Shown: positions 5,095 to 27,533 of the stretch, piece after piece
How the letters are laid out: each line of letters starts with the position of its first letter
How positions within the stretch are numbered: the first letter of the stretch is position 1
Source of the DNA: Candidatus Hadarchaeota archaeon
GTDB taxonomy: Archaea > Hadarchaeota > Hadarchaeia > Hadarchaeales > JAGGTB01
Direction of reading: 5' to 3'
Length of the DNA: 64,000 nt
NCBI GenBank assembly: GCA_964608515.1
Contig: CAZSNS010000004.1
Coordinates: 1,600 to 65,599, forward strand
Notes under the pieces: generated by a model
Databases searched by the model: none
Told to the model about the DNA's origin: nothing
Seen by the model: the letters and a program-made list of their open reading frames with translations, nothing else
Translations under genes and position numbers: made by a program

Positions 5095-5120
5095 TTTTTT
5101 GTTATGGGTGTAACAAAAAA
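5095..5120 (+). repeat. 25-bp palindromic intergenic element, copy 1 (TTTTTGTTA-TGGGTG-TAACAAAAA)
   Basis: Exact sequence read. 9-bp arms with a 6-nt loop and T/A tracts on both sides. Confidence 0.9.
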
Positions 5121-7003: not shown

Positions 7004-7030
7004 TTTTTTTGTTATGGGTGTAACAAAAAA
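7004..7030 (+). repeat. 25-bp palindromic element, copy 2
   Basis: Exact match. It directly abuts the stop codon at 7001-7003. Confidence 0.9.
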
Positions 7031-7073: not shown

Positions 7074-7631
7074 ATGGAGTCAGATATTTTGGCTGAAGAA
7101 AATGAAGAAGAAATAGAAGAAGAGGTAGAAGAAACCGAAGAAGTAGAAGAAGAGATCGAAGAGGAGCCGGAAGAGGAAGAGCCGCAAGAACTTGATAATA
7201 GTGAAATTGATGCTGTGCCGATGATTATGTGTTCTGACGATTCTGTTTTGATGGAAATTGAAGGAACTGAAATCAAGGAAACAGAGGAAAGGAGTTTTCT
7301 CTTTTCGACAAGTACTGAAAGTCATATGAATCTGAAGTATGTTTGTCCCAAATGTGGAAGACATTACTTCTACGACATGGAGCAAAAAAGACAGGGATGC
7401 TTTATAGCCACTGCAGCTTACGGAACTCCCTTCTCTCAAGAAATAAATGTACTTCGTAGATTTAGAGACTCTTATCTTGTACATAGAGAATGGGGACAGG
7501 AAATTGTTAACATGTATTATACCATCTCCCCGCCGATAGCTAATATTATTGAAAAAGACGATAATCTTAGAAAAATAGTCAGAACTTGCCTAAAACCCTT
7601 AGTAGAGCTCTTCAAAGAAAAAGATTCATAA
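7074..7631 (+). CDS. hypothetical protein: poly-E acidic N-terminus plus CPKC Zn-ribbon and a CFIATAAYG segment
   Basis: 185 aa. EEEIEEEVEE low-complexity run, CPKCGRHYFY, CFIATAAYGTP. Confidence 0.4.
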   Translation: MESDILAEENEEEIEEEVEETEEVEEEIEEEPEEEEPQELDNSEIDAVPMIMCSDDSVLMEIEGTEIKETEERSFLFSTSTESHMNLKYVCPKCGRHYFYDMEQKRQGCFIATAAYGTPFSQEINVLRRFRDSYLVHREWGQEIVNMYYTISPPIANIIEKDDNLRKIVRTCLKPLVELFKEKDS

Positions 7632-7826
7632 AAAATCAAAAACCAGTTCCATTCTTAATATTAGAGATTGGAAAACTCTTCGAAAAATCTAGATTTTAGG
7701 AACTGGATAGGCGTTTTTCGATCCGAGAAGTTAGTGTTTGGTAACAGTTTTCTCACGAATCCTAACTAAACGGGACACTTCATTCAGAATAGAATTTATG
7801 ATAAATAGCGACTCTAATAAAAGAGG

Positions 7827-7855
7827 TTTTTTTGTTATGGGTGTAACAAAAAAAA
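7827..7855 (+). repeat. 25-bp palindromic element, copy 3
   Basis: Exact match. It sits between convergent genes and abuts the stop at 7856-7858. Confidence 0.9.
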
Positions 7856-8416
7856 TCAGGAAATCTTCTCACGTAACGGTCTTATCCTTTCTTCCAACTT
7901 TTTAGAAAATTCTTCATTATCAGTCCAATCATGTCTCAATAAATTTTGGCATTCCTCTACTACCCTTCTGATTCTTTGAAGTTCTTCATTTCCAACTTTA
8001 TCTCGAGAGTCTATCGATAACAAGGAATCGATCTCAGAGTTCAAAGATTCTTCTCGTGTAACCTCAACCCTCTCCAAGACCCCTTTCATAGCTTTCATTC
8101 GGTCTTCTGATGGAAGAATTCCGTCGAAGGAGTATAAGTCGATTTTTTCCCATTTAGGATCGTTGAAAAAGTTATCGAGCGAGTTTTGAGCTGATTTTGG
8201 GATGGCGATTACGCTTTTTCCTAAACGTAAGTGAGGGAGAGGGGTGACGATGCCAGGGTAAAAATTTTCATAGACATTTTCTCGACCGTTTTTGTCCTCC
8301 CTAGTTGTTTTGGAGTTGAAACCGAAGAGTTTTCTATAAAATTTAGTTCTTTTTCCTCCTTTGAATTGGAGGTCGAAACTGTAAACTCGGGCTAATGTGT
8401 TTTTTTCTATTTTCAT
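7856..8416 (-). CDS. hypothetical protein (187 aa)
   Basis: The ORF-track N-terminal extension (CYTHNKK x2) is a translation of the palindromic repeats. The likely real start is the ATG at 8416 (MKIEKN...). Confidence 0.45.
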   Translation of the reverse strand: MKIEKNTLARVYSFDLQFKGGKRTKFYRKLFGFNSKTTREDKNGRENVYENFYPGIVTPLPHLRLGKSVIAIPKSAQNSLDNFFNDPKWEKIDLYSFDGILPSEDRMKAMKGVLERVEVTREESLNSEIDSLLSIDSRDKVGNEELQRIRRVVEECQNLLRHDWTDNEEFSKKLEERIRPLREKIS

Positions 8417-8420
8417 TGAT

Positions 8421-8444
8421 TTTTTGTTATGGGTGTAACAAAAA
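8421..8444 (+). repeat. palindromic element, copy 4 (right A-tract shortened)
   Basis: TTTTTGTTATGGGTGTAACAAAAA, located 5 bp upstream of the start codon at 8416. Confidence 0.85.
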
Positions 8445-8460
8445 TAAAACTTGTGAACCA

Positions 8461-8488
8461 CACACCCACCCCTTCGTTTCGACTGGAG
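8461..8488 (-). promoter_or_regulatory. ORB-like origin recognition box A (inverted)
   Basis: Minus strand reads CTCCAGTCGAAACGAAGGGGTGGGTGTG. That is a TCCAGTnGAAA dyad followed by a G-string. Confidence 0.45.
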
Positions 8489-8514
8489 TATAATAAAAAA
8501 TAAAAAAACAATTA

Positions 8515-8541
8515 TTTTTTTGTTATGGGTGTAACAAAAAA
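8515..8541 (+). repeat. 25-bp palindromic element, copy 5 (inside the AT-rich tract between the ORB-like boxes)
   Basis: Exact match. Confidence 0.9.
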
Positions 8542-8641
8542 TAAATAATAAACATAAGTACAAACAACAGTCAAGAAACAAAACAGAAAACGTCTATTAC
8601 TTATTAATAATAATTTTGCGCGGACACGGACTGATAATGGC

Positions 8642-8666
8642 TTCCAGTGGAAATGGGGGGGTGGGG
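8642..8666 (+). promoter_or_regulatory. ORB-like origin recognition box B
   Basis: TTCCAGTGGAAAT followed by GGGGGGGTGGGG. It matches the archaeal ORB dyad + G-string architecture and is inverted relative to box A across a 150-bp AT-rich tract. Confidence 0.5.
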
Positions 8667-8680
8667 TATGTTTTTCAATT

Positions 8681-9724
8681 TTATCTTGTAACTTCCTGTT
8701 GTTTTATGAATTCGTAAAGTTCTCTAGCTTCTTCGTCTTCTTGGAAGTGTTTTCGGATCGGTTTTACTAGTTTGTTTATATATCTTGATACGTTTTTCTT
8801 GAGATCTAGAGGGTGGAGTTCCCCTTGACGATAATCTTTCTCTAATTCAGAATATTTTTCATAGTTGAGGTCTCCGCCATAATCGTCCTTCCTTTCAATT
8901 TTCACAGTGTCGAAACTTTTGAAAATCAAATGTTTGGTATAATCTAAGATAGGATTTCCTTTGACTTGTTTTTCGGGACAGTAAGCTCCTTCTATTTTTT
9001 CCCAAATTTCTTCTTCAGAATCATGAACAAAAATCGAAGTCGATGGTTTACTCTTACTCATTTTCTCCCCCCCACTTTCACCTTGCAAACCCATCAACAT
9101 GTGATGTGAAACAGTCACAGGCTTCTCCCTACCAATCTTAGGAGCAATATCCCTCGCCAACATGTTCGCCCGTCGCTGATCCTGCCCTAACTGGCACATG
9201 TCCACATCAAGATGAAAAATATCAGTAGCCTGCATGCTCGGATAAAAAACCCAGGCCGCAGGGTTTTCCCCAGCGCTTTCTCTACCAGCTATTTTCAGGG
9301 CTCTTTGGGTTCTGTTTAGGGTGTGGTTTTTGGCTATTTTTAGGACGGTTTTCCAATATTTTTGGTCCATTATTTCGGAGGACCATAATATTTCTACTTT
9401 GTCCATTGGGACTCCGGCGGCTTTCCAAACTTCGATGAAATACTTTCCGACTTTTTGAATTTTTTCTAAATCCCCGTCCATTTTTTCGTTGATCCAGGCG
9501 TACCAATCAGCTAATAATAGCTTGAATCTTACACCGGCTTTGATCATTTTTTTGAGGTTCATTGCTCTGTATACTCCGAAAGCTATGTGTGCTTGGCCGG
9601 ATGGTTCGAATCCGTCGTAGGCTGTGGGGTGTTTTTTTGTTTCGAGTAGTTCTTCTAGTTCTTCGTTTGTGATTATTTCTTCTCCTACGTCTTTGATTAG
9701 GTTGAGTCTTTTTGTTACGTTCAT
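8681..9724 (-). CDS. tyrS: tyrosyl-tRNA synthetase (archaeal type)
   Basis: 347 aa. KMSKS motif and a C-terminus closely resembling M. jannaschii TyrRS (GNPI..., GGDL..YE.LE, ELHP.DLK). Confidence 0.8.
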   Translation of the reverse strand: MNVTKRLNLIKDVGEEIITNEELEELLETKKHPTAYDGFEPSGQAHIAFGVYRAMNLKKMIKAGVRFKLLLADWYAWINEKMDGDLEKIQKVGKYFIEVWKAAGVPMDKVEILWSSEIMDQKYWKTVLKIAKNHTLNRTQRALKIAGRESAGENPAAWVFYPSMQATDIFHLDVDMCQLGQDQRRANMLARDIAPKIGREKPVTVSHHMLMGLQGESGGEKMSKSKPSTSIFVHDSEEEIWEKIEGAYCPEKQVKGNPILDYTKHLIFKSFDTVKIERKDDYGGDLNYEKYSELEKDYRQGELHPLDLKKNVSRYINKLVKPIRKHFQEDEEARELYEFIKQQEVTR

Positions 9725-13253: not shown

Positions 13254-14378
13254 ATGACATCAAACAAAATCGGCCTAATAGTAAACCCTATAGCAGGTAT
13301 GGGTGGCAAAGTCGGATTAAAAGGAACAGACGGTCCTGAAATAGTAGAAAAAGCCCGAGAATTAGGCGCGGACCCTGTAGCTCCGGAAAGAGCGGTTAAA
13401 GCATTAGAGAAATTAAAAGAATCAGATATAAACTTCAATATTTTCACCTGTTCTAACGAAATGGGGGAAAAAGAAGCTGAAGAGGCTGGTTTAGAGTTTA
13501 AAATAATTTATGATATTGAATCAGGAAAAACAAATCCTGAAGATACTAAAAGAGCAGCTAAAAATTGTCTGGAGAAAGAAGTAGATATAATTTTATTTGC
13601 TGGTGGTGATGGAACCGCTAGAGATATCCTTGAAGTTATAGATCAAGAAATTCCAATGCTGGGCATTCCCACAGGTGTCAAAATGCATTCAGCAGTTTTT
13701 GCAAATACTCCCGAAATCGGAGGAAGATTAGTAGCTAGATATTTACACGGAAATGGGCTTCCGTTGAGGGAGGCAGAGGTTGTTGACGTCGATGAAGACG
13801 CTTTCCGCCGCAACGAATTGGATACAGATTTGAAAGGTTATGGAAAATCTCCCTATGATCCTAGCTGGGTTCAGGCAGCAAAGTCCCCAACAGTCACATC
13901 CGGTTCAGAGGTTGAAGATCAAGAATCTATAGCAGAATGGATAGTTGAACAAATGGAAGAAGATCGATTATATGTTTTAGGGCCTGGCACCACTACTCGA
14001 GCTGTTGCAGAAGAATTGGGAATTTCAGAATTCACATTATTAGGAATAGATTTGGTTAAGAATGGAAATCTTGTAGCTGGGGATGTTAGGGAAAAAGAAA
14101 TTTTAGAAAAATTAGAACAAAACCCCGAAGCTACCATAATAGTTAGCCCTATCGGTAAACAAGGATTTATCTTCGGTCGGGGGAACCAACAAATCAGTCC
14201 AAAAGTAATCAGAGAAGTGGGTACTGACAATATTCTGATTCTAGCTACTCCGGGCAAACTGGCTGAGACTCCCCAGCTTAAAGTTGACACTGGAGATTCA
14301 GATTTAGACGAAGAATTCCGAGGTTATGCGAGAGTGATTCTAGACTACGGCACGAAAAGACCGATTCCAGTGACTTGA
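13254..14378 (+). CDS. ATP-NAD kinase family protein (NadK-like)
   Basis: 374 aa. IGLIVNPIAGMGG N-terminus and GGDGT motif (FAGGDGTARD). Confidence 0.5.
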   Translation: MTSNKIGLIVNPIAGMGGKVGLKGTDGPEIVEKARELGADPVAPERAVKALEKLKESDINFNIFTCSNEMGEKEAEEAGLEFKIIYDIESGKTNPEDTKRAAKNCLEKEVDIILFAGGDGTARDILEVIDQEIPMLGIPTGVKMHSAVFANTPEIGGRLVARYLHGNGLPLREAEVVDVDEDAFRRNELDTDLKGYGKSPYDPSWVQAAKSPTVTSGSEVEDQESIAEWIVEQMEEDRLYVLGPGTTTRAVAEELGISEFTLLGIDLVKNGNLVAGDVREKEILEKLEQNPEATIIVSPIGKQGFIFGRGNQQISPKVIREVGTDNILILATPGKLAETPQLKVDTGDSDLDEEFRGYARVILDYGTKRPIPVT

Positions 14379-14489
14379 AACTCTAAAATTTTTCCAATCT
14401 CAAAAACAAATCTTTACTATCCTAACAATCAATACTGTAAAAAAGGTGAAAACCCTCTTTTAGAAAGTATTCTCTAAAAAGGTGAATAA

Positions 14490-15947
14490 ATGAAAAACAA
14501 GCTCATAAAAATACTTCCAATTATTATCATTACAGTTTTGATTTCTTACCCTTCAGTAACAGGGGTCGAAAATTCTCATTCCCAAGAATACGAACATGTG
14601 AAGACTTTAACAAACATCGGACCGCGCCTTGCTGGAACGGAAGCGGAAGATGAAGCAGTCCAGTATATTGAAAACGAATTCAAAAACTACGGATTATCCA
14701 CGAACGTTAAAAAATTCCAACTGGAAAACGGTTACATTTTCAAAAAAGGACAATTATCAATCCAAACCCCCTTCAAAGAAAACCTAAAATTTTCACCCCT
14801 CATAAGATCCCCACCCACACAAGGAGAAATAATAGACAATCTAATATACCTCGAAAACGTTCCAGAAAACACAACATCCCTCCAAGACCAAATAATCCTA
14901 ACCCGAAAAAAGAACATATTCGAAATCAAAAAAACACCCACCCAAGCAACAATACTATTCCAAGAAAACAAACCCGACTGGTCAAATATTTGGCCCCCGG
15001 ATTCTTTGAAATCCCCAACTGTGACGGTTTCTTATGAAACAGCTGAATTTTTGATTAAGTTGTTGGAGGGTTCTGATGTGGATAATGTAACGGTTAAGCT
15101 TGAGTTAGATTCGGAGATGAAAACTCTCACTTCACATAATGTGATTGCTACTCTTCCGGGGGAGATCGATGAGACGATAATTGTGAGTGCTCATCATGAC
15201 TCTGTTTTGACGCCAGGGGCTATTGATGATGGCACAGGTGTGGCGATTTTGTTGGAGACTGCTAGAGAATTATCTGACGAGAATTTGTTAAGGACTGTGA
15301 AATTCGTTTCTTTTGGAGCTGAAGAGTATGGACTTATCGGCAGTAAGGAATTTGTTGAGGATGTTGAAAAGGATAAGATTGCAGGTGTTTTAGATTTCGA
15401 TGTTATTGGTCCTGGGTCTTCAAATGGTTTGAGGATTGGTGTTAGAGATTATTTTGAGAAGAGTACTACCCGTTGGCTTGATGTGTATGTTGGAAATGTT
15501 GCTGAGGATAAAGGGTTGAGTTATTCTTTTGGGACTTTCGAGGAGGTGAATGGTTATAGTGATTATGTTAGTTTTATTGAGAAGAATATTCCGGCGACTT
15601 GGATATATTGGGTGTCGGATCAGGATGATGATCCTTTGTGGATGGTTCATACTTCTGAAGATAATTTGGATTTAGTGAGTGAGAATAATTTGAAAGTTAC
15701 TTCTCGTTTTTCTGTTAATTCGGTTACCAGTCTTAGTACTGGCAGAACTCGCGGTTGGTTTTGGGATTATGGTTCGCCTGAAAAAATTTCGATATTTTTG
15801 ATTTTTTCTTCCGCACTTGTTATTGTAGGGATTGCTGGTTCAAGTTATTTGCGTTATGTTCGGAAGAGAAAAAATTGGTTATTGGTGGTCGAGACGGGAT
15901 TGCTTGTGACGATTGGAATATTTGTTTTATATTTCTGGCTGTTTTGA
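14490..15947 (+). CDS. M28-family zinc aminopeptidase, signal peptide plus C-terminal TM anchors
   Basis: HHDSV, DDGTGVA and GAEEYGLIGS metal-ligand blocks typical of M28. Hydrophobic N- and C-termini. Confidence 0.65.
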   Translation: MKNKLIKILPIIIITVLISYPSVTGVENSHSQEYEHVKTLTNIGPRLAGTEAEDEAVQYIENEFKNYGLSTNVKKFQLENGYIFKKGQLSIQTPFKENLKFSPLIRSPPTQGEIIDNLIYLENVPENTTSLQDQIILTRKKNIFEIKKTPTQATILFQENKPDWSNIWPPDSLKSPTVTVSYETAEFLIKLLEGSDVDNVTVKLELDSEMKTLTSHNVIATLPGEIDETIIVSAHHDSVLTPGAIDDGTGVAILLETARELSDENLLRTVKFVSFGAEEYGLIGSKEFVEDVEKDKIAGVLDFDVIGPGSSNGLRIGVRDYFEKSTTRWLDVYVGNVAEDKGLSYSFGTFEEVNGYSDYVSFIEKNIPATWIYWVSDQDDDPLWMVHTSEDNLDLVSENNLKVTSRFSVNSVTSLSTGRTRGWFWDYGSPEKISIFLIFSSALVIVGIAGSSYLRYVRKRKNWLLVVETGLLVTIGIFVLYFWLF

Positions 15948-15997
15948 GCCGTCTAACTTTTTAGTGCTCTCGGTGAAATAGTTTCATAAGGAAGATA

Positions 15998-17185
15998 ATG
16001 TACGAGGATATGTTTGAGGAAGAGATGGGAAAAGAGTCGATTTTTAAAGACCAGTCGATACTTTCTCCGGATTATGTACCTGAAAAGCTTGTTCATAGGG
16101 AAGAAGAGTTTAGGGAATTGGTACAACTGTTCAAACCCGTGTTGGAGGATGAAGCAAGTCAGAGAGTTCTAATCTCAGGCTCTGTTGGGGTTGGAAAAAC
16201 GGCTCTTGCTTCAAGATTTGGCGAGGTATTGGAAAAAGAAGCTAAAAAGAGAGACATGAATCTCACTTATGTTCATGTGAACTGTCGTAAACAGGGAACT
16301 CCTCAGATGGTTCTTCACGATTTGGCTTCTAATTTCCCCCTTACTGTTCCGAAGAGAGGTTTTGCCCCGCAAGAAATCATGAATCATGTGATTGACCATC
16401 TGGAGAAGAAAGATGTTTACCTAACGGTTACTCTGGACGAGTTAGATTACTTTATACGGCAAAACGGTCCCGATTTACTATACTCACTTTCCAGAGCTGC
16501 TGAAGAATCTGACGCGCAGAACAGGGTTAGCATAATAGCTACCTCCTTCTCACCAGACTTTTTGGAAACACTGGACGAAGCAACCCGAAGCACATTCATG
16601 CATAATCTGATAGAAATGGACAAGTATAACTCAGAACAACTCTTCGACATTCTTAATGAGAGAGCAGAAAAAGCCTTCAAACCAGGCACGGTCAAGGAAG
16701 AAACGCTCGATCTAATATCGAATATTGCATCAAGGAGAGGAGATGCAAGATTTGCTTTAGAATTATTATGGTTTTCAGGAAGGATAGCTAACAAAGGAAA
16801 CAAGGAAAATGTCTCACCTAACCATGCAAGAAAAGCAAAATCGGAAATAAATCCAGAAATTAGAAAAGACGTACTCCAAGACCTAAAAAAACACGAGTTA
16901 TTATCTTTACTAGCAATTTCCCGTCGTTTAAAAATTTCTGACGAAGCCTTCGCTCTCACAGGGGATGTAAAAGAAGCTTATAAGATAGTTTGCGAAGAAT
17001 ATGAAGAAGAACCTAGAAAACACGTACAATTCTTGTCCTATATAGACAAACTGGAAAACCTAGGACTGGTAGACACAGAAGAATCCAGAGGCGGACACAG
17101 AGGTCAAAGCCAAAAAATCAGCATATCAGACGCACCACCAGACCTGATGGAAGAAGAAATACAAAAAATCCTAAACAAAAAATAA
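15998..17185 (+). CDS. cdc6: Orc1/Cdc6 replication initiator
   Basis: 395 aa. Walker A GSVGVGKT, AAA+ plus a C-terminal winged helix. Confidence 0.85.
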   Translation: MYEDMFEEEMGKESIFKDQSILSPDYVPEKLVHREEEFRELVQLFKPVLEDEASQRVLISGSVGVGKTALASRFGEVLEKEAKKRDMNLTYVHVNCRKQGTPQMVLHDLASNFPLTVPKRGFAPQEIMNHVIDHLEKKDVYLTVTLDELDYFIRQNGPDLLYSLSRAAEESDAQNRVSIIATSFSPDFLETLDEATRSTFMHNLIEMDKYNSEQLFDILNERAEKAFKPGTVKEETLDLISNIASRRGDARFALELLWFSGRIANKGNKENVSPNHARKAKSEINPEIRKDVLQDLKKHELLSLLAISRRLKISDEAFALTGDVKEAYKIVCEEYEEEPRKHVQFLSYIDKLENLGLVDTEESRGGHRGQSQKISISDAPPDLMEEEIQKILNKK

Positions 17186-17396: not shown

Positions 17397-17422
17397 TTTT
17401 TTGTTATGGGTGTAACAAAAAA
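17397..17422 (+). repeat. 25-bp palindromic element, copy 6
   Basis: Exact match, 110 bp downstream of the tRNA and abutting the 3' end of the wHTH gene. Confidence 0.9.
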
Positions 17423-17431
17423 TTACTCATT

Positions 17432-17743
17432 TTACTGAGTTTCAACACCAGCGTTTATCATTTCGTTCCATTTTTCTATAACCTCTTGACCATTCTCAGT
17501 TATGGAGAGGACATCACTGTCTTTTCTCCCTATTTCTGGTTCGTCCTTTGCTTCTATAAGATTCATGTCAATTAGTTTTTCTATCCTATCGTAGAGGGTT
17601 TCGTAAGATCCTCCTATTTTTTTCTGTATTTCGGATAATATTCTCTTTTCCTTCTTAACGAATCGAAGAATTTCCACTGTTTTTGAGTTTCGGAGTAGTT
17701 CTTCTAATTTCCGCCTTTTTCTATCTGCAAGTTTTCTACTCAT
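17432..17743 (-). CDS. small winged-helix DNA-binding regulator
   Basis: 103 aa. wHTH-like core (VEILRFVKKEKRILSEIQKKIGGSYETLYDRIEKLIDMNLIE). It is divergent from the ImmA-like gene. Confidence 0.4.
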   Translation of the reverse strand: MSRKLADRKRRKLEELLRNSKTVEILRFVKKEKRILSEIQKKIGGSYETLYDRIEKLIDMNLIEAKDEPEIGRKDSDVLSITENGQEVIEKWNEMINAGVETQ

Positions 17744-17928
17744 TTCATTTCATAATTAATATCCTAAATAAATAAAGTTTACTTAATATGTAAATATTTG
17801 CTCTTATTAGTTTACATATTTACGATATCCGTAAAGAATTAGTTTACATATGGTGTTAAATAGACCAAATAAAGCAAAATTTAAGCGTTAAATATAAATA
17901 ACAGGTAAAGTAAACTTTCTAATGAATT
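17744..17928. promoter_or_regulatory. divergent promoter/operator region with a repeated GTTTAC-containing motif
   Basis: 13-bp direct repeat TTAGTTTACATAT at 17807-17819 and 17839-17851. Inverted AAAGTTTACT (17774-17783) and AGTAAACTTT (17909-17918). The region is very AT-rich. Confidence 0.4.
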
Positions 17929-18849
17929 ATGAAGGCTAAAGAATCTCTATATGATGAATTTGAATGCCTTAGAGTTGGCGAGGGTTTTTCAGAGAAGGAG
18001 GCATTTAGGGAAATTTTAAATCGAGAAGTTAGAAGTAAGTTTACAGATTTAATGAAGGAAATAGAAGACGAGAGGATGTCGCCACCATTTGATTTAAAAA
18101 AAGTGGCTGAAGATTTAGTTTCTCAAGATATAGGAGAAAAAATAGAAGTAATTGAGGAGGATCTTGCTAGAGCCGGTTATGTACGGGAAGATTTTGACAA
18201 TGACGATGGTAAAATAATACATATTGATAAGGATGCTCCGACTTATAGAAAGAATTTTACTTTGGCTCATGAAATTGGACATATATATGGACACCTTATT
18301 ATGAAAAGAAATAAGATAGTCGAATTACGCAAAAATTTAGAAGAAGAATTTTTGGATAATATTGTCGAAAATGTTATGGATGATTTTGCTGGAAGCTTGT
18401 TAATGCCGAAAGGATATATAGAAGATATTGAAGATGAGATAAATAACAATTTGAACTACGATACTCTTATGGATATTTCTAAAAAGTTTAGTGTAAGCAA
18501 GCAGTCTCTAATTATAAGGTTAAATGAATTGGATATACTGGAACATCCTAATATCATTATTCTATTTAAGAATACTTTTTATTTTGACAAAAGGAAACCA
18601 GAAAAGATGAATAGAGATAGGGCTTGGCGTGTTTATTGTCGATCTACCCCTTCCGGATTATTTATCCCAGTCAACGCAAAGGCGGCATCTCTGGGTTTTG
18701 ATGTTGATTATTGGGAAGAGATAAATAGAAGTAATTTTGCCATGCAGGATTTGATAAAAATTGATGGTAATGAAATTGAATTAATCTATAAAGCAAGAAG
18801 GAACAAAAAGTATAGAACTTTACTTAGTTTTGGGAAGATAAGGAAATGA
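17929..18849 (+). CDS. ImmA/IrrE-like HExxH zinc metallopeptidase domain protein
   Basis: 306 aa. LAHEIGHIYGHL (HEIGH). Paired divergently with a small HTH regulator, as in ImmR/ImmA modules of mobile elements. Confidence 0.4.
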   Translation: MKAKESLYDEFECLRVGEGFSEKEAFREILNREVRSKFTDLMKEIEDERMSPPFDLKKVAEDLVSQDIGEKIEVIEEDLARAGYVREDFDNDDGKIIHIDKDAPTYRKNFTLAHEIGHIYGHLIMKRNKIVELRKNLEEEFLDNIVENVMDDFAGSLLMPKGYIEDIEDEINNNLNYDTLMDISKKFSVSKQSLIIRLNELDILEHPNIIILFKNTFYFDKRKPEKMNRDRAWRVYCRSTPSGLFIPVNAKAASLGFDVDYWEEINRSNFAMQDLIKIDGNEIELIYKARRNKKYRTLLSFGKIRK

Positions 18850-18864
18850 ATAACATTTCTTGCT

Positions 18865-21273
18865 TTAGGAATACTCTTCTTCTATTTTTTCCACGATTCT
18901 TTCTTGGATTTTGTCCATTATCTCTACTTTTTTTTCACTTTCCCCTCTTTCACCTATCACATCTACAGTTTCTTTACAAGCCTTTATTATAATATCGGGA
19001 TTTACATCCTCTCTAAATTTCTCAACAGCGGCCGTATTTGCACCACGCTTATCAGGTTCTGAATAGTGTGAAATTTCTGTTGTCCATATATCATCAAAAA
19101 GTTCAAAAAAATCCTCTTTAGAACTAGGTAATTCCTCTCTTGAATATTTATGAATCTCTTCTTCTATTTTTTTGAATATTTCCTCAGTGAGGAGATATTC
19201 TTCTACCTTTCTACTTTTATTCTTTCTCCACTCTTCAAGATAGTTTTCTTTAAGTTTTTCAGTGGGTTTATAATCCATATGGGTTACTACTTTTTCGTTC
19301 TCAATTAAATCTTCTTTCGGTTGATTTAATTCCTCTGCCAAATATTCTAAAAAATTAGTTACAATCTTGCTGACAATAATTTCGTTTTTAGCGTCATCCG
19401 GATGGATGAACAAGAAAAAATTCCATAAGCGTTCATATCTTTCTTCGGATAGCAACTCAATTTCTTTCTGTATGTCTAAGCCTTCACTCCTATTTGTCAG
19501 AGGCTCTAATCTAACTTCGTCATGTTTTTCTTGAATGAATGTTCCTATCTCTTTAGCTTGAGGGTGTCTTTCAGGACAATACACAAAGGTATCCCTTTCC
19601 ACCTTACATTCACTTTCGATTTTTTCTAATTCTTCAGGGGTTGCGTGATAAGTGTCTATAAAATCATTAAGATTACTAGCAAGGTCATTAAAAAGAGTAA
19701 ATGGAATTATTGCTCCTACTTTGTTAAGTTTTCTTTCTTTAAACCTAGTCAGTAATTCATTATCAGCCCTACTTTTTATGTAATGAATCAGTTCGCTATC
19801 AGTAAGATTAAGAATAGACTTTTCTTCACCCTCATAAGGATTAGAGTCCTTAGGTTTTCTCCCTCTTAATAATTTGAGTAACATAGTACTTGCTGCTGCT
19901 TTTGTTTTATGGTAGTATACCCTTTCAGCTAAAGTATGCCTAGTATCCATTATATTGAGTATTTCTGTTATTATATCTCCTTTTTCTGCTCCCCTTTTAC
20001 CATAAATAGATAAACCTAAACGGAGGGGAGAAGTCGTGTCGTATTCAACCATAGAGTTATCTTCTCCTATGATGAAATATCTGAATATTCTCTCGTCATA
20101 CCCTTTCGATTTTATACCGCAGTTTCGTAAGTCCCGTCGAATGTAGTCTAACATATCAGCACAGATAGTATTTCCGACAATATCTGCCATAAAAGGGTGG
20201 AAGATATCTCTTTCAGAAAATTTCTCTAAACTTTTTGAAAGTTTTTCGAATATTTCTTCTACTCTAGGTTGGGATTCACCGTTTTTTACTTCAGATCTAA
20301 TGTTTTCAAGTTTGTCTTCAAAGCTTTCAATTTTACCTGTATGTTTAATTTCATGTTTGAATTTGAGAATAAGGAAGAGCAAGTCTCTAAGATCTTTATT
20401 AGAGATTGGTGATATCCATCTTCCATCATTTTCTTCGGGAAGCCAATCATCCTTCGGATTAACAAGGATTTTTCTAATTTCGCTATTTTCGTCAAAAAGT
20501 AAATACCATAATCTGGGACTTTTTATTTCATCATGCCCTTGAAATTCATCGAACTCATCTTCTAAGGTGTGTCCAAAAGGAATATGGGTTATATCGTGAA
20601 GAAGTGCGGCTATTGAGACAATTTTCTTTATTGATTTCATTTTATTGGAAAATTCTTTGTATGAATCCCTAGTATCTGGATTGGAGTAGTATTTTGAACT
20701 TCCGTTCAAATAAACGTTTAGTTTTCCATCTTCTTTTCTAATATTGTGATGGTATCCCTTATTTTTGTCGTTTAATCTCCACAATCGGTTTTCTTCTACA
20801 ACCTCAACGGTAAAGTTCTCAGAAAGAGTAAGACCGTTTCTCTCGTACTTTTCTTTAAGTGTCGTCGTTTCGGTTTCATTTAAGCTTTCCACTAGATCAC
20901 CTATATTTTCTTCTATAGTAAACAGATACTCATCCAAGAAAATATCAGAAATTTTTGAATTGAATGGTTCGAGATCCAACCTCTTATGGTTTTTCGGTAT
21001 GTTATTACATATTTTTTTAGCTAAATGATATACACCAATTGAATGCTGAAACCTTGTATGTTTGGCTCCTCGGTAAACGAGGTCGGCGAGGTTTAATTGT
21101 TTGAGTCCATCTAATCTTTCAAATTCTTTAGTATCAATTAATTTTTCCGCCAGGCCAGAAAATTCTATGTCTCCCCAGATATTATCTTTATAAATCATTC
21201 TATTCGCACCAGCCATCCCCCTAGAGGAGGGTGATGAGATTTTATGAGTTCGTTTAAATAAAAAACTTACCAT
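18865..21273 (-). CDS. dGTPase/SAMHD1-like HD-domain dNTP triphosphohydrolase with ~300-aa charged C-terminal extension
   Basis: 802 aa. FQHSIGVYHLA (H), AALLHDITHIPFGH (HD), and the DMLDYIRRD motif typical of the Dgt/SAMHD1 family. The conserved N-terminal block (NIWGDIEFSGLAEKLIDTKEFERLDGLKQL) suggests the true start is at ATG 21216 or 21198. Confidence 0.55.
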   Translation of the reverse strand: MVSFLFKRTHKISSPSSRGMAGANRMIYKDNIWGDIEFSGLAEKLIDTKEFERLDGLKQLNLADLVYRGAKHTRFQHSIGVYHLAKKICNNIPKNHKRLDLEPFNSKISDIFLDEYLFTIEENIGDLVESLNETETTTLKEKYERNGLTLSENFTVEVVEENRLWRLNDKNKGYHHNIRKEDGKLNVYLNGSSKYYSNPDTRDSYKEFSNKMKSIKKIVSIAALLHDITHIPFGHTLEDEFDEFQGHDEIKSPRLWYLLFDENSEIRKILVNPKDDWLPEENDGRWISPISNKDLRDLLFLILKFKHEIKHTGKIESFEDKLENIRSEVKNGESQPRVEEIFEKLSKSLEKFSERDIFHPFMADIVGNTICADMLDYIRRDLRNCGIKSKGYDERIFRYFIIGEDNSMVEYDTTSPLRLGLSIYGKRGAEKGDIITEILNIMDTRHTLAERVYYHKTKAAASTMLLKLLRGRKPKDSNPYEGEEKSILNLTDSELIHYIKSRADNELLTRFKERKLNKVGAIIPFTLFNDLASNLNDFIDTYHATPEELEKIESECKVERDTFVYCPERHPQAKEIGTFIQEKHDEVRLEPLTNRSEGLDIQKEIELLSEERYERLWNFFLFIHPDDAKNEIIVSKIVTNFLEYLAEELNQPKEDLIENEKVVTHMDYKPTEKLKENYLEEWRKNKSRKVEEYLLTEEIFKKIEEEIHKYSREELPSSKEDFFELFDDIWTTEISHYSEPDKRGANTAAVEKFREDVNPDIIIKACKETVDVIGERGESEKKVEIMDKIQERIVEKIEEEYS

Positions 21274-21442
21274 TTTAGTTTTAGTTTTGATTTTAATCTT
21301 CGTATTTTCTCTTGATTACTGAAGGGGTTAGATATCTATCAATTATGGAAAAATAAGATAGGAAGGACTTCTTCAGTTGCATGTCGTATTTTTATATTCC
21401 CCAATTTTATTAGTACTGTCCAGTTCTAGAATAAGATGGAAA

Positions 21443-21556
21443 ATGATATGTCCTCATTGCGACATTGAAATGAAATTAGTTGAATCGGAGGGGAATACAG
21501 AGGATAACAAGTGCCCCAAATGTGGTTTTCAAAAAACAGTAATAAGAGACAAGTAG
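21443..21556 (+). CDS. small 4-Cys zinc-ribbon protein (37 aa), below the ORF-track cutoff
   Basis: Hand translation: MICPHCDIEMKLVESEGNTEDNKCPKCGFQKTVIRDK. Two CPxC knuckles. Confidence 0.3.
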   Translation: MICPHCDIEMKLVESEGNTEDNKCPKCGFQKTVIRDK

Positions 21557-21626
21557 TTTTTAATATTTTTTGAAAGAATTGCTTTGCATGATTAAAGGGT
21601 TTGTTTTGGCTATCCCGGTATAATTT

Positions 21627-21968
21627 TTAGGACTCTACTTCTTCTTTATAACGATCATTTACCTGTTTTTGAAAATAAAGGACAAGGCCGATACAAGCAA
21701 ATATTATGGCAAATTGGATTATCAAGACTGCACATAATTTATAAGAGATTATCAGTAAAGAGCCCCTTGCTTCTAGAATCCAACTACCTACACCTATAAT
21801 TATCATTATGGCAATTAATGGTGAAACTGGAATCCAGATACTTACATATTTACGGCGATTATCGAGAGCATTCTTGTAGCGGTCGTTTTCGTGCCTATCG
21901 TAATTGTCCATAAGGGAGTGCTGTGAGGCAGCCCAAGACTGAGCTCTACTAAACACAAAGCCAGCCAA
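21627..21968 (-). CDS. small integral membrane protein (2-3 TM)
   Basis: 113 aa. Hydrophobic segments PVSPLIAIMIIIGVGSWIL and LCAVLIIQFAIIFACIGLVLYF. Confidence 0.4.
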   Translation of the reverse strand: MAGFVFSRAQSWAASQHSLMDNYDRHENDRYKNALDNRRKYVSIWIPVSPLIAIMIIIGVGSWILEARGSLLIISYKLCAVLIIQFAIIFACIGLVLYFQKQVNDRYKEEVES

Positions 21969-22011
21969 GATTCCTAAAGCCGTTAATGTTAAAGGTAGGA
22001 CTTCTATATTG

Positions 22012-22620
22012 TCACTCTCCTTGGTTCTCGATTTCTTCTTCTATCCAATCCAGAAGATTTTTAGCATGAGTTTTAGCTTCCACTTTGAACTTTTTTTTAT
22101 GCCCACTATGGCTCACAGTTTTGGGCTTAATCGCCCCCTCAACACTTTCATATTCTCCCTCATGTTTGTCAAAGATCTCTCTGAGTAAATCCCATAATTC
22201 AGATTCTAGTAAGATATAGTGGTCTTCAACTTCCTCTCCGAATTTTTTAACAAGTTTCTCAAATTTTTTCTTTAAATCCTTAAACATATTACCTTTTAAA
22301 TTACTATATCTGTTAGGTTCTTCAGTTTTCAAAGCTCTAATTAAATAAGTCGCCTGTCCGTCAGTTATGTTAAACTTATTGGTTAACACATCTCTTTCTG
22401 GCTTCCATCCAAATTCTTCACATAAGGGCCATATTATTCTGGCCATAAGCTCCGAGGTACTTGAGGGGCGAGGCTTTTCTGCTGTAATCCACTCAAAAAA
22501 GAACCGTTCCCCCTCCTCTTTCACAGTATCTCTTATAACTTCATCTTCTTCCTCGTCCCCAATCTGAAACTGATTCTTTAAATCTACAAATAGTTCATCA
22601 ATTGATTTCCTATCAGGCAC
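22012..22620 (-). CDS. hypothetical protein
   Basis: 202 aa, charged, no recognisable motif. It lies between the HD gene and the membrane gene on the same strand. Confidence 0.35.
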   Translation of the reverse strand: MPDRKSIDELFVDLKNQFQIGDEEEDEVIRDTVKEEGERFFFEWITAEKPRPSSTSELMARIIWPLCEEFGWKPERDVLTNKFNITDGQATYLIRALKTEEPNRYSNLKGNMFKDLKKKFEKLVKKFGEEVEDHYILLESELWDLLREIFDKHEGEYESVEGAIKPKTVSHSGHKKKFKVEAKTHAKNLLDWIEEEIENQGE

Positions 22621-22857
22621 CTTATTCTCCCCCCACTTCCCAAAGCAAGATAAGTCTGTCTTATTTAAAGTTTTTATGAGTTATTACTGTTTTCCGATGG
22701 TTCTAGTGCCTCGGCGACCTCACCACTTAATATTTAGCCAAGCGTGGTTTCACTTTGTGGAGTTTATCTCCGGTCCCTTTCTCCCTTTGAACCCCTGAAT
22801 AGAGGGCTACTTCGTGGACGATATCGTCTTGGGGAGTAGGAGGAATGCAATGTTTTC

Positions 22858-23664
22858 TTAGCTATCTCTTCTCTCTTCAAAATAGTCTTGAGCTTTCACT
22901 TCAATAGAGAAAGGTTCAATATTTTCACAATCCTCTAAGACAGAGTTCACTTTTTCAATTTCTTCTCTAAGTTCTTCTATTTGTTTCCCCGAAACTTCTT
23001 CCTCATGAACTATCACTAAGATTTTTCCCCCTTCTCTCACTAAAACAGATTCTATATTCATGTGGCCCTTCCATATTTCCTCATCTAGTTCTTCTTGAAG
23101 AATATCATAAACTACTTCTGGTGCTCTACGATTATCAATGTCACATGAATCAGCTATACGGAATAAAGTAGCTAACAATTGGACTTTTATCTCATCTCCG
23201 CAACTGTGAGTACGTTCTGGAATATCATCTAATTCTTCTTCTGAACGATGTCTTTTAACCACTGTCTTAAGACCACTTTCAACAGGATTATCTAAATCAA
23301 ACAAGTAGTTTTGTCTCTTTAATGTATCCCACATTTCACAAGATTTTTCGGCATGACTTTCTCTATCCTCCAAGTTCCCAATATCATGGATCCAAGCTGA
23401 AGCATATAAAATAAAAATTTCTTTTTCATTCAATTCCCCCCCTGACTCTTGATAAATATCAATAACATCATTGAGGTATCCAATAATTCTCTTAGAATGC
23501 TCATAACCGTGATCTGTAAATTTGGGAATTTCTCGCGGTATATATCTCAAAATATAAGTAATTGCCTTTTTTATCACATACAGTTTATGTTCGTATGCAG
23601 TGCTTCCATTTCCCTGATTAGCTAGTTTTTTGTATTTTTGATTATTGTTCCCCATCAACAACAA
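22858..23664 (-). CDS. HD-domain metal-dependent phosphohydrolase/nuclease-like protein
   Basis: 268 aa. H (DHGYEHSKRI), HD (AWIHDIGN), H (HAEKS), H (RHRSEE) and D (RIADSCD) in HD-superfamily order. Confidence 0.5.
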   Translation of the reverse strand: MLLMGNNNQKYKKLANQGNGSTAYEHKLYVIKKAITYILRYIPREIPKFTDHGYEHSKRIIGYLNDVIDIYQESGGELNEKEIFILYASAWIHDIGNLEDRESHAEKSCEMWDTLKRQNYLFDLDNPVESGLKTVVKRHRSEEELDDIPERTHSCGDEIKVQLLATLFRIADSCDIDNRRAPEVVYDILQEELDEEIWKGHMNIESVLVREGGKILVIVHEEEVSGKQIEELREEIEKVNSVLEDCENIEPFSIEVKAQDYFEERRDS

Positions 23665-23866
23665 TTATTGAAATTTGGATAATTAAGCTTTTAACATTGA
23701 ATTTTTAAATAACGAGTTAATTATTCAATATTGAGTTGAAATTTTGAGATGGAAAAAGACTTATAAGATGGATATTATATATCTATTTTGGTAAAAAAAA
23801 TGAAAAGATTTATAAAAAATGAACCTCCTGGTGAGGAAGAGTTTGCAGTGAAGAAAATTACCTGAG

Positions 23867-24157
23867 GTGTTTATATTGGAAGAGATACTATCCGAGGAAT
23901 TGAAGGTGGCATTAAAAGTATTCGAGTACGACAAGAAAAAAAATGAGCCTATTTATCTTAATAAACTCGATGAAGTTATCAATGATGTCAGTAAGAACAA
24001 AATAAGTAGCTCGGTTGACGAACTGTTTGACTTAGGGATAATAAATGCGAAGTGGGAGAAATCAGGGGGTAATTGGGCTAGAGTACTCACTATCAGTGGA
24101 GAAGCTGAGGACTTTTTAGAGGATCTCGACGAGCGAGTAAAGGAATTAGAGGAATAA
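23867..24157 (+). CDS. hypothetical protein (GTG start per track)
   Basis: 96 aa ORF with no motif. Confidence 0.25.
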   Translation: MFILEEILSEELKVALKVFEYDKKKNEPIYLNKLDEVINDVSKNKISSSVDELFDLGIINAKWEKSGGNWARVLTISGEAEDFLEDLDERVKELEE

Positions 24158-24341
24158 AGTTACTACATATGCTTTTTTTTCTTCAAGGTAGATAATTTTA
24201 ATAGCCTAGCTCGCTGTTTAAATTTGGTTTCTATCACTTATCTAGCATTTTTTCGGTTCGATTAATCACTAGAATTTAAAACTGACACTCTATCAAAGAT
24301 GGTTTTAAAAAGGTCAAGCTATAAACTCATTCTGTATATAT

Positions 24342-25457
24342 ATGGGTTTAGACGATTTAGAGAAGTATAAAGAGGAAGGAGAGACCTTTGGCTTAAAAGA
24401 CATAATAGATGAAAAAGAGACTTTTGATTTAAAAGAGGAATTTGAGGAGTTTATTGGAGATCATATCAAAGAACTATCTGAAAAAGATAATATTATTGCA
24501 CTAAAGAGAAAAGGGAATGTTTTTTTTGAGCATTTGAGGGAAAAATTTCCATCTTTAAAAACCCTTGGACATCTTTCACAAAATCATATCCATGTAAAAA
24601 AGGAAGAATTAGACAATTCTAAGATAATAATATTCGATGATTCAATTGATGAGGGAAATAATTTTGGAAATATCATGAAAGTATTTGAGAAACTAAATAT
24701 AAATCCGAAAGAAGTTTTAGTTCTAAATGTAATAGTGAATGAAAATGCAATCGAAAAAATAAAAGAAAAATATCAAGATGGTGACCTAAAATTTTTATAC
24801 CTCGAATCAGTTTCAGATGAGGAATACGGTAAGCTGTATCCTAAATGCATGTTTGGATATATAGATTATATAAATGAATCCTTAAACAAAGATTTTTCAA
24901 TTATTACCTTAGAATTGGATAAGAGAATTAACATTGAAGAGCTTAAAGAATGCTTTAATGAAAAATTTGATATAATGGATTTAGAACATAAATTAGATTT
25001 GGAGAGTTTAGAAAGAAATAAAGAACATATAGTCTCGAAGATTTCTTTGGACGCTGAAAAGTTTTTTAATAATAAAAGGGAAAGTTTCCCAGAAATAGAA
25101 AATATGAAGCAAACGAAAGTAAGAATTTTCTTAAGAGATAGAGAAACTAACAGCTCTATTGATATTATACCAATTTTAATCCCAGAAAATCCTCCTGTAA
25201 TGGAGTGTAAAGATAAAGAGATATGTAAACTTGATGAATTTAAGAAAAAACATCTAGAAAACTCAGAGCCTGATGAAGAATGCTTGGAAAGATACTGTAT
25301 AAAGTGTTTACAAGAAAACCTATCTAAAGATTTCGATAATAAATTTCAAAGCTATTTAATAAAAAAATTGAAAAAAAAGGGTATTCAAATAATGAGAAGC
25401 AAGACTGAATATCCAATAATTCCTGATTATTTCCCCCTTCTTGAATTTCCAACCTAA
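24342..25457 (+). CDS. PRTase-like (phosphoribosyltransferase type I fold) domain protein with Cys-rich C-terminal extension
   Basis: NIIALKRKGNVFFEHL followed by KIIIFDDSIDEGNNFGNIMKVFEKL...VLVLNVIV resembles the PRPP-binding loop (hhhhDDhhxTGxT) of type I PRTases. C-terminus has CKDKEICKLD...CLERYCIKC. Confidence 0.35.
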   Translation: MGLDDLEKYKEEGETFGLKDIIDEKETFDLKEEFEEFIGDHIKELSEKDNIIALKRKGNVFFEHLREKFPSLKTLGHLSQNHIHVKKEELDNSKIIIFDDSIDEGNNFGNIMKVFEKLNINPKEVLVLNVIVNENAIEKIKEKYQDGDLKFLYLESVSDEEYGKLYPKCMFGYIDYINESLNKDFSIITLELDKRINIEELKECFNEKFDIMDLEHKLDLESLERNKEHIVSKISLDAEKFFNNKRESFPEIENMKQTKVRIFLRDRETNSSIDIIPILIPENPPVMECKDKEICKLDEFKKKHLENSEPDEECLERYCIKCLQENLSKDFDNKFQSYLIKKLKKKGIQIMRSKTEYPIIPDYFPLLEFPT

Positions 25458-25981
25458 AAATTATAATCGACTTCATTCAAAATCTCTGGCTTTTGAGATC
25501 TCATTTCTTTGACTTTTTTTACCATATTCTCCTTCTTATTGATTTTTCCTTTTACTAATTAGATGTTTTTGATAGATATTGTTTTCTTTTTGGATTCCAG
25601 TCTTTCTAGGAAGATTTGGATAATAGATTAGAAAAAGTCGAAAAAAGATAATGTATAGCTTCCATAAACCTGATTCAAATAATGTATACACTTCCGAAGC
25701 TTCAGAGAAGAATAAGAGGGGAATTGAACGGTTGATTTTGAAGCCTTGAAGAGATTTTAACCTTCCATTCTCTTTTCATTTTTCGAAAAACGCTATCTAA
25801 TTCTCCGAACCTATATGGCTAGAATTTGGAGGTTAATAGTGTGTTAACTTTTCCGAAATCGGAAAACTATTCGCCTTTTCCTATCGTTTGTTACAAGACT
25901 ATTGGATTTGTCGCTTAGTCTTCTCAATAAATCACTATAAAGAGGAAAATAATATTAGATTCTGATTTAATAGCATAAAAC

Positions 25982-26872
25982 ATGAGCTTACGAGATTTAT
26001 ATTTGGATAGATGGAAACGAGTGAGGGCCGCGGGGATTAAAATATATGATAATAAAGGTCTAGAACAGGCAATTAATTTTATAAATAAAAATTTGAATGA
26101 TCCTCGTAAAATTGCAGGATTGGAAGCTGAACTTCTCTTCTATGATGAGTACAAGGAAAAGCATTCTTTAATACCTACTACGCTGATGGATGATATGCTA
26201 AAATGTGATTTTGCTGGTGATTATAAAGGTGGAGCGGCTCGTTTTGATGTGACGACGAACCCCGAATATAAAGATCTTTCCGAATATGAGAGTCTTCAAG
26301 AGCAGGGAGAATATTATATCGTCGTCGTTGATAGAGAGGGGAAAGATTTCCAAATATTAGATATAAACTTTCCTACATGTTCCTTTTGTGAAGGGTTAGA
26401 GGATAAAAAAGGGAGGCTTATTCCGATAGTAAATATTTCTAAACTTGGTGGAGAGTCAGTATGTAGCTCTCGTTTGAGATTTTCTAGAATATGTTCTTAT
26501 TGTGGAAAAGAAGAGCAGATTGCCTATGATGAACTATTGGAATTTTCTCCTTCATCAATCCGTTATGAGGTGGAGAAAAGATTTGAAGAGCGACTTAGGT
26601 GGGCAGAGGAAGAACGTGGTGAAGAAAAAAGGAAAGAAATAGAGAAAGAATATGAAGAGACATTAGAAGAAGAGCTAGAAGGTTATGCTAGTACTATTAA
26701 AGATTTCTGTAAAAATCAGTATGGAGGAATACCTAGGTTAGTTGGTAGTCCTGGGGGTAAGATGATTCATGGAGAAGTGGTGGAACGCTTTGAGCCCTTT
26801 TGGGTGCATCCGACTATTGATGAGTTTTTTGATCCGTTAGCAATTTCTGATCTTGTTCCCCCCCGTCCATAA
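25982..26872 (+). CDS. hypothetical Zn-finger protein (two CxxC pairs)
   Basis: 296 aa. CSFCEG...CSYCGK, with a charged coiled-coil-like C-terminus. Confidence 0.3.
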   Translation: MSLRDLYLDRWKRVRAAGIKIYDNKGLEQAINFINKNLNDPRKIAGLEAELLFYDEYKEKHSLIPTTLMDDMLKCDFAGDYKGGAARFDVTTNPEYKDLSEYESLQEQGEYYIVVVDREGKDFQILDINFPTCSFCEGLEDKKGRLIPIVNISKLGGESVCSSRLRFSRICSYCGKEEQIAYDELLEFSPSSIRYEVEKRFEERLRWAEEERGEEKRKEIEKEYEETLEEELEGYASTIKDFCKNQYGGIPRLVGSPGGKMIHGEVVERFEPFWVHPTIDEFFDPLAISDLVPPRP

Positions 26873-26975
26873 GTAGAGATAGAGAAAATACTAATGGGTT
26901 ACTGTATTCGGAATAGTCTGGTATTATCTTATTCGTGAAAACCTGTCCGGAAAGTATTGTCCAAAAATAAGTAAA

Positions 26976-27533
26976 TCATATTTTTACTTTTTCAGCTAAA
27001 CTTAAGTTTACCCTTTTCACTTTTTCTGGTTCAGCAAGTTCAAATCTCTCTAATTTTCTGTATAATTCGTTTATCGTACGTTTCCAGCCCCAGTTCGGCC
27101 GATTTCTTTTCCGAAATACTTTGTCCAATTCATTTTCGAAGTAGTCGGTAAGCTCATACTTCTCCAGCTCTTCTTGGATTTCGTCTGCTTTTGAAATGGT
27201 TTCTTTTTCAAAATCGTCACTGTTTGAAACTTTCTCACAAAAGTCAATGATTTCGGAAATCCTGTCAGTTAATGAAACTTCAATATCTAGTATTTTATCG
27301 TTCCAATTTCCTGCTTGTTTGAATATTTCTATAGTATCTTCTATTTCTTCGGTGTTTCCGACATGTTTTCGGTTGTCATCTGATTTTATCGTATCGAATA
27401 TCTCTACCCTGTCGTCCTCTATTATCGGAATATCGAAAATCATCGTTTGGTCATCCATTTCTACACCTCCAAATCCTTCCTCGCCTCCTACTATTAGGAA
27501 CTGTGTTTCTGTACGACCGCTCGTATAATCCAA
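26976..27533 (-). CDS. hypothetical acidic protein
   Basis: 185 aa ORF. Confidence 0.3.
   Translation of the reverse strand: MDYTSGRTETQFLIVGGEEGFGGVEMDDQTMIFDIPIIEDDRVEIFDTIKSDDNRKHVGNTEEIEDTIEIFKQAGNWNDKILDIEVSLTDRISEIIDFCEKVSNSDDFEKETISKADEIQEELEKYELTDYFENELDKVFRKRNRPNWGWKRTINELYRKLERFELAEPEKVKRVNLSLAEKVKI

Follow-up and report, generated by a model that had tools for sequence, protein, structure and literature searches.

Among the archaeal replication origins that have been described, one close counterpart of the locus reported here is oriC1 of Haloarcula hispanica, in which the minimal functional origin was defined genetically as two inverted origin recognition boxes (ORBs) around an AT-rich tract, and in which deletion of either ORB or mutation of either G-string abolishes autonomous replication (PMC3936714). 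Haloarchaeal ORBs carry an extended G-string that is described as 'halophile-specific' and is essential in H. hispanica (PMC1868953, PMC3936714). GGGGGT extensions have also been reported for the non-halophilic Methanomassiliicoccales (PMC4153887), the origins of which were predicted in silico from inverted ORB pairs that are 39–256 bp apart (Borrel et al. 2014, PMC4153887). Published sequences for comparison include the archaeal ORB consensus CTTCCAGTGGAAACGAAAGGGGT (Pelve et al., as quoted in PMC4153887), the euryarchaeal consensus GTTCCAGTGGAAAC-AAA----GGGGG (PMC1868953) and the S. islandicus ORB from work on MCM recruitment, TTTCCAGTGGAAATAAAGGGGT (as quoted in PMC12890983). In origin prediction, adjacency to orc1 is the usual criterion (PMC4010727, PMC3528665).

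The window analysed here, the whole 64-kb stretch of DNA to which all coordinates refer unless a related locus (L001–L017) is named, contains a similar arrangement at 8417–8680. This interval is the entire intergenic spacer, 264 bp in length, between two minus-strand genes: the tyrosyl-tRNA synthetase gene tyrS (8681–9724), which is transcribed towards it, and a gene for a 186-amino-acid protein (7856–8416), which is transcribed away from it, the two genes serving as synteny anchors on either side. From direct observation of its anatomy, statistical uniqueness and conservation, and of the class of initiator encoded nearby, the interval is very probably an origin of chromosomal replication that belongs to the classical archaeal Orc1/ORB type (the oriC1 class).

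The observation made for this interval in the first-pass annotation, namely inverted ORB-like boxes with G-strings pointing outwards, holds upon reading back the sequence and checking the inverted repeat. ORB1, on the tyrS side, occupies 8641–8667 of the plus strand, CTTCCAGTGGAAATGGGGGGGTGGGGT, and is made up of CTTCCAGTGGAAAT and GGGGGGGTGGGGT, its dyad, TTCCA-G-TGGAA, being perfect and the G-string behind it being directed rightwards, away from the spacer; positions 8642–8666 of the same strand read TTCCAGTGGAAATGGGGGGGTGGGG. ORB2, on the side of the 186-aa gene, occupies 8463–8489 of the minus strand, or 8457–8489 with a TGTGGT extension, and has the sequence ACTCCAGTCGAAACGAAGGGGTGGGTG; minus-strand positions 8461–8488 read CTCCAGTCGAAACGAAGGGGTGGGTGTG, the dyad is the imperfect TCCAGTCGAA, and the G/T-string points left, again away from the spacer. 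Both boxes therefore combine a TCCAGTGGAAA-type dyad with a G-string behind it, and together they form an inverted repeat of 23 nt (arms 8465–8487 and 8643–8665, 83% complementary), the left edge carrying a C-run and the right edge a G-run. ORB1 lies 14 nt from the tyrS stop codon, and ORB2 is located about 45–70 nt ahead of the start codon (ATG) of the 186-aa gene. In a gapless comparison, 18 of 22 positions of ORB1 and 17 of 22 positions of ORB2 are identical to the S. islandicus ORB, both boxes fit the archaeal consensus, and seventeen MSBL1 boxes compared in the same manner share 14–20 of the 22 positions.

The spacer between the boxes (8490–8640, 151 bp) is 76% A+T, compared with 62% for the window. 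Within it, the 60 bp beside ORB2 (8492–8551) reach 88% A+T and are the most AT-rich 60-mer in the window, and the ORB1-proximal part is of ordinary base composition. The earlier description of the spacer as extremely AT-rich thus applies to the ORB2-proximal 60 bp but not to the spacer as a whole, and it is the left half that is the presumed DNA-unwinding element. The tract is also strand-skewed, with an AT skew of +0.30 to +0.37 on the plus strand, where it is A-rich, being T-rich on the strand on which ORB2 reads 5′–3′. In the eight origins compared, the spacers are 116–344 bp in length and 68–81% A+T, compared with 48–62% for the respective loci, and the final 60 bp ahead of ORB2 are 77–88% A+T. 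Scans of 7700–9000 for Rfam families, tRNAs and bacterial promoters or terminators gave nothing meaningful, and no tRNA gene was found in the whole 64 kb, so that an RNA family, a tRNA or a bacterial-type terminator was rejected as an explanation of the region.

The boxes stand out clearly from the background. A loose ORB pattern, TCCANNNGAAAN{0,8}GGGG (that is, TCCANNNGAAA, 0–8 nt and GGGG), matches twice in the 64 kb, compared with 0.12 expected, and a pattern built from the published consensus sequences, independently of the window boxes (TCCAGTGGAAA with at most one mismatch and GGGG within 8 nt), finds the same two sites, compared with 0.03 expected. In first-order Markov simulations, an outward-facing pair within 600 bp arose in none of 1000 sequences. 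In a position weight matrix scan, ORB2 scores 43.9 bits and ORB1 36.8 bits, with the next best site in the window at 12.3 bits; the training set consisted in part of these two sites, and several of the related loci were left out of the matrix. No ORB-class site of at least 24 bits was found outside the locus, either in the remainder of the window or in some 144 kb of non-redundant MSBL1-type DNA, and the generic ORB pattern likewise has no match elsewhere in the window or in this related DNA. Over this range the boxes are not scattered; scattering across the genome had been named in the first-pass annotation as evidence against an origin. A search for mini-ORBs with the 11-nt core at up to two mismatches gave 26 matches, compared with 26 expected, and no mini-ORB cluster was found in the window, including beside orc1, leaving a box count of two ORBs. 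The cumulative GC skew has no turning point at 8.5 kb, being dominated by gene strand and uninformative at the scale of 64 kb. An AT-rich tract at 42.78–42.88 kb was considered as a second origin and rejected, as it contains weak ORB-core look-alikes without G-strings and no real repeats.

The window derives, as judged from its proteins, from an uncultured MSBL1/Hadarchaeia-type archaeon: its TyrRS, for which an exact look-up returned no record, shares 75% identity with the enzyme of 'candidate division MSBL1 archaeon SCGC-AAA833F18' and 71% with that of a Candidatus Hadarchaeia MAG. The 186-aa protein belongs to an MSBL1-restricted family with 35 members among 5.8 billion proteins, all of which are MSBL1 or unlabelled. 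It was examined as a possible origin- or palindrome-binding protein and has no match in Pfam or PADLOC; its AlphaFold model, which is confident (pLDDT 93.5), predicts a ferredoxin-like (Cas2/RRM-like) domain at the N-terminus and a three-helix bundle at the C-terminus, and none of the structural neighbours of the model is informative. The proteins of the window are strongly acidic, and a 185-aa open reading frame at 7074–7631 on the plus strand opens with a stretch of about 40 mostly Glu residues. Such acidity is consistent with a salt-in halophile or brine organism.

Related loci were gathered by way of homologues of both TyrRS and the 186-aa protein, and with a single DNA-pattern scan. An inverted ORB pair is present in the same spacer between tyrS and the 186-aa gene in seven independent relatives (L001, L003, L005, L007, L009, L013 and L015); L004 is the same as L003 and L006 the same as L005, L011 and L012 carry the ORB sequences of L007, and the metagenome scan with the pattern of the palindrome (described below) and ORB2 returned two contigs only, both with the L007 ORB sequences. 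In an eighth relative, L010, ORB1 is present and the contig then ends. The boxes are thus kept at this locus among relatives, where their absence would have spoken against the proposal. The TyrRS of L007, L009, L003, L005 and L001 is 71–84% identical to that of the window, and L013 and L015, which were found through the 186-aa protein, share 84% and 49% identity in that protein. An alignment of six spacers contains three conserved blocks, namely ORB1, a unit consisting of a palindrome, a T-rich tract of about 25 nt and ORB2, and a second palindrome right before the ATG; the sequence outside these blocks is unalignable and of variable length, with neighbouring proteins 49–85% identical. Purifying selection across lineages is therefore acting on the boxes and their polarity, as well as on the AT-rich tract and the spacing of the palindrome, and ORB2 is the better conserved box of the pair. 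The linkage between locus and pair is not absolute, because in L008 (3197–3269) an unrelated gene lies downstream of tyrS and no ORB is present, and because in L014 (9989–10000) the 186-aa gene and its upstream palindrome are found in another neighbourhood with no ORB pair. In L015, the most distant relative with the pair, tyrS is inverted and the pair is still beside the 183-aa gene; an intein-containing MCM gene (13485–14398) lies 9.7 kb from the pair in this relative, and orc1 is not visible within the 14 kb examined. In L009, the 344-bp inter-ORB spacer (2312–2655) contains the partial ORB-core look-alikes TTTTCCAGTGTG and ACCAGTTGAAAT, which are without G-strings and may be extra mini-ORBs.

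The presumed cognate initiator, an orc1/cdc6 gene with Pfam Cdc6_lid and Cdc6_C matches, lies on the plus strand at 15998–17185; these coordinates agree with the 7.3 kb downstream reported in the first-pass annotation. Six genes separate it from ORB1, encoding TyrRS, a MinD/ParA-like ATPase, a SpoIIM-like protein, a GltS-like protein, NAD kinase and a peptidase. The best PDB matches of Orc1 are P. aerophilum Cdc6 (1FNN, 2e-56), S. solfataricus Cdc6-1 (2QBY_A, 4e-51) and A. pernix ORC1 (2V1U, 2e-47), whereas the matches to A. pernix ORC2 and S. solfataricus Cdc6-3 are far weaker (1e-22 to 1e-24), and the protein is therefore assigned by homology to the ORB-binding Orc1-1 initiator class. No second orc1 or other replication gene was found in the 64-kb window. 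At this locus orc1 does not directly adjoin the boxes, the arrangement by which origins are usually predicted, and no ORBs were found in the flanks of orc1 in the window, L003, L005 or L013, the four genomes with enough flanking sequence, in which the distance from orc1 to the pair is 7–8 kb. Adjacency is a prediction heuristic and is mechanistically dispensable. In L003, a block of NAD kinase, Usp and orc1 lies on the opposite side of the pair, 8.2 kb away and in the same relative orientation (L003 16221–20621; L005 2745–6328; window 13254–17185), and the L003 Orc1 is an orthologue of the window Orc1 with 67% identity. Such a switch of sides would be expected if rearrangements had occurred symmetrically around an origin. 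In Hadesarchaea YNP_N21, of the sister lineage, the Orc1 (L016/L017, 10001–11194) is 55% identical to that of the window and no ORB-like site is present within ±10 kb of orc1; from this single negative observation, the loose linkage of orc1 and ORBs may be old.

Compared with the oriC1/cdc6-1 (Orc1-1) class, which includes Sulfolobus oriC1, Pyrococcus oriC and haloarchaeal oriC1, the window locus shares the TCCAGTGGAAA dyad, the 3–4 nt linker and GGGG(T), as well as inverted boxes around an AT-rich unwinding tract, distal G-strings and an Orc1-1-type initiator. It differs from this class in that its initiator gene is 7.3 kb away behind unrelated genes, and on either side in relatives, and in that it has no boxes beyond the two ORBs and carries a lineage-specific palindrome at a set distance from ORB2. 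The locus also resembles the H. hispanica minimal oriC1, with two inverted ORBs and an AT-rich region in the same polarity, the C-run on the left and the G-run on the right. Both organisms are brine-dwelling with acidic proteins, although the lineages are unrelated (MSBL1/Hadarchaeia and Halobacteria). Long G or G/T runs continue past the canonical G-string, GGGGGGGTGGGG and GGGGTGGGTGTGTGG in the window, with lengths of 12–15 nt at both ORBs, and may be comparable to the extended G-string of haloarchaeal ORBs; however, the G-rich inverted-repeat enhancer located inside the haloarchaeal ORBs is missing, and the extension is well kept only at ORB2. Among the 12 bases after GGGGT in the relatives, 7–12 are G or T at ORB2 and 6–11 at the more variable ORB1. 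Convergence with haloarchaea is conceivable for this extension, and its link to salt is unproven because of the similar extensions in the non-halophilic Methanomassiliicoccales. The latter have the near-identical sequence GTTCCAGTGGAAATGA-AGGGGT in inverted pairs, also predicted from sequence; however, their pairs immediately flank orc1/cdc6.1, on its upstream or downstream side, and single ORBs are also found in isolation at other places in these genomes. Taken together, the ORB alignment, the H. hispanica layout, the conservation and the Orc1-1-class initiator support the earlier proposal of a canonical oriC layout bound by Orc1/Cdc6.

By analogy with work on Sulfolobus, Aeropyrum and Haloarcula, the binding of Orc1, the loading of MCM, the site of unwinding and the firing of the origin may be pictured as follows. 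One ATP-bound Orc1-1-type monomer, encoded 7.3 kb away, would occupy each ORB, with its winged-helix domain touching the TCCAGTGGAAA dyad and its AAA+ domain touching the G-string. As the boxes are inverted with the G-strings distal, the two monomers would face each other across the spacer and would recruit MCM to it; melting would begin in the 88% A+T, T-skewed tract beside ORB2, and forks would then depart both ways. The palindrome, 30–35 nt from ORB2, would be a lineage-specific accessory, which could be bound by another factor or could halt tyrS transcription that runs into the origin.

Several points count against an origin: orc1 is not adjacent, there are only two ORBs where many characterised origins have more, the cumulative GC skew, uninformative at this scale, does not turn at 8.5 kb, and L008 and L014 are exceptions to the linkage. 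The first and last of these also feed the leading alternative, which is that the site is a dormant, relic or secondary origin that binds Orc1 while the main chromosomal origin is elsewhere. Archaea often have multiple origins, some of which are reportedly dormant (PMC4595724), and only 64 kb of the genome is visible in the window; as this is a MAG contig, other origins elsewhere in the genome are possible. Against this, the boxes, polarity, AT-rich tract and palindrome spacing have been held by sustained purifying selection while the flanking proteins diverged to 49–85% identity, which argues for function rather than a relic. Moreover, since no ORBs flank orc1 in the window, L003, L005 or L013, the pair is the only candidate partner for the Orc1-1-type initiator in about 200 kb. 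We therefore regard a dormant or relic site as unlikely.

Less probable again, and to be given little weight, is the view that the boxes are transcription-control sites of Orc1 or another regulator, serving to repress the 186-aa gene or to block read-through from tyrS, and not an origin. The closeness of ORB2 to the ATG of the 186-aa gene and of ORB1 to the tyrS stop codon would suit such a role, and some Orc1 paralogues, for example Orc1-2, are reported to be transcription regulators (PMC9738581). However, regulators of the Orc1-2 type bind AT-rich promoter regions and not ORB sites (PMC12890983), the Orc1 encoded nearby is of the initiator class, and a strand-skewed, AT-rich tract enclosed by an inverted pair is the layout of an origin and atypical of an operator. 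The rearranged relatives bear on the same question: the relocated 186-aa gene of L014 keeps its promoter-proximal palindrome and has no ORBs, and the pair remains where tyrS is inverted in L015. As the pair is retained irrespective of the orientation of tyrS and does not travel with the 186-aa gene, a purely regulatory role is unlikely. Finally, a chance resemblance, or an origin remnant of an integrated plasmid or virus, is scarcely credible: a capture of archaeal origins from extrachromosomal elements has been proposed (PMC4010727) and a low-GC island with defence-like genes begins right past orc1 (17.4–36 kb), but the simulations produced no outward-facing pair, the island lies beyond orc1, at a distance of 9 kb, and the pair is flanked by housekeeping genes (tyrS, minD and purine genes) in synteny conserved across relatives, with no integrase nearby.

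Returning to the chromosomal origin as the preferred reading, its least familiar component is the palindromic element. The 18-nt sequence TTGTTATGGGTGTAACAA occurs in eight exact copies in the window, compared with 0.07 expected, each between a T-run and an A-run: seven on the plus strand (5099–5116, 7009–7026, 7832–7849, 8424–8441, 8520–8537, 17401–17418 and 46231–46248) and one on the minus strand (47243–47260). All eight lie between listed open reading frames, 10–58 nt upstream of starts or 9–16 nt downstream of stops. Two copies had been placed in or next to the spacer, and this proved correct, with 8520–8537 inside the spacer and 8424–8441 outside the ORB pair. The first of these, P1 (8515–8541 with its flanking runs, as read on the minus strand), consists of a T-run, the 14-nt core GTTACACCCATAAC and an A-run, and is a candidate accessory element of the origin; its core ends 34 nt before the TCCA of ORB2, and the corresponding gap is 30–35 nt in all eight origins compared. 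The second, P2 (8419–8446, likewise read on the minus strand), stops short of the start codon (ATG) of the 186-aa gene by 9 nt when measured from its core and by 7 nt when measured from the 18-nt element. Because of this position, and because it stays with the gene in L014 where the ORBs are lacking, P2 is assigned to the promoter region of the 186-aa gene and not to the origin. In the window, L003, L005, L007 and L013, a third copy follows the stop codon of this gene, so that in these five the gene is bracketed by the element before its ATG and after its stop.

The core GTTACACCCATAAC is identical in relatives with only 60–85% protein identity. At the P1 position, L009 and L015 have the perfectly palindromic variants GTTACACATGTAAC and GTTACATATGTAAC, and L001 keeps the core, TGTACACCCATAAC, with differing flanking arms. 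As single-stranded DNA, the palindrome is computed to fold into a hairpin of 9–10 bp; since L001 keeps the core while the arms differ, the conserved unit is an asymmetric 14-mer and more than a hairpin. No Rfam family covers the palindrome around 7700–9000, and a literature search for its sequence found nothing relevant. In its scattered copies, the palindrome could be a lineage-wide punctuation element of promoters and terminators or the site of a regulator; for the copy in the origin, the site of an accessory protein or a barrier to read-through from tyrS are the likeliest options.

A more far-reaching joint reading, which we consider possible but rather doubtful, is that MSBL1 has a composite origin in which the Orc1 boxes are coupled to the asymmetric 14-bp core GTTACACCCATAAC, otherwise scattered over gene boundaries throughout the genome, and in which the G/T-string extension evolved independently of that of haloarchaea. 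A second factor or a hairpin would then aid the melting of the origin or insulate it from transcription and, if this reading is true, the independently evolved extension would support its having adapted the binding of Orc1 to DNA to high intracellular salt. Beyond this, the peculiarities of the locus are modest, namely an orc1 gene 7 kb away, two ORBs only and a palindrome at a set position, and in other respects it is laid out as a textbook origin.

In a full-text literature search, no paper combining 'MSBL1' with 'replication origin' came up, and it appears that no replication origin of MSBL1 or Hadarchaeia has been described previously. The conserved ORB pair may serve as an anchor for orienting and closing MAGs, for coverage-based (peak-to-trough) estimates of growth rate in brine-pool metagenomes and for the biochemistry of Orc1–DNA recognition at high salt. 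The locus is also a clean counter-example to the heuristic that an origin is adjacent to orc1, and prediction tools that use this heuristic would miss it or rank it down.

The low-GC stretch that begins directly past orc1 (about 17400–36000) has a GC content of 30–35%, compared with 38–42% elsewhere in the window. It opens with a small winged-helix gene (17432–17743) divergent from a gene for an IrrE/M78 CapP-like protease (17929–18849; PADLOC capP, 1.6e-20), followed by genes for an HD-domain protein of 802 aa that weakly matches dGTPase and for an HD-CE protein, and by many genes without a family. In this composition it looks like a defence or variable island.
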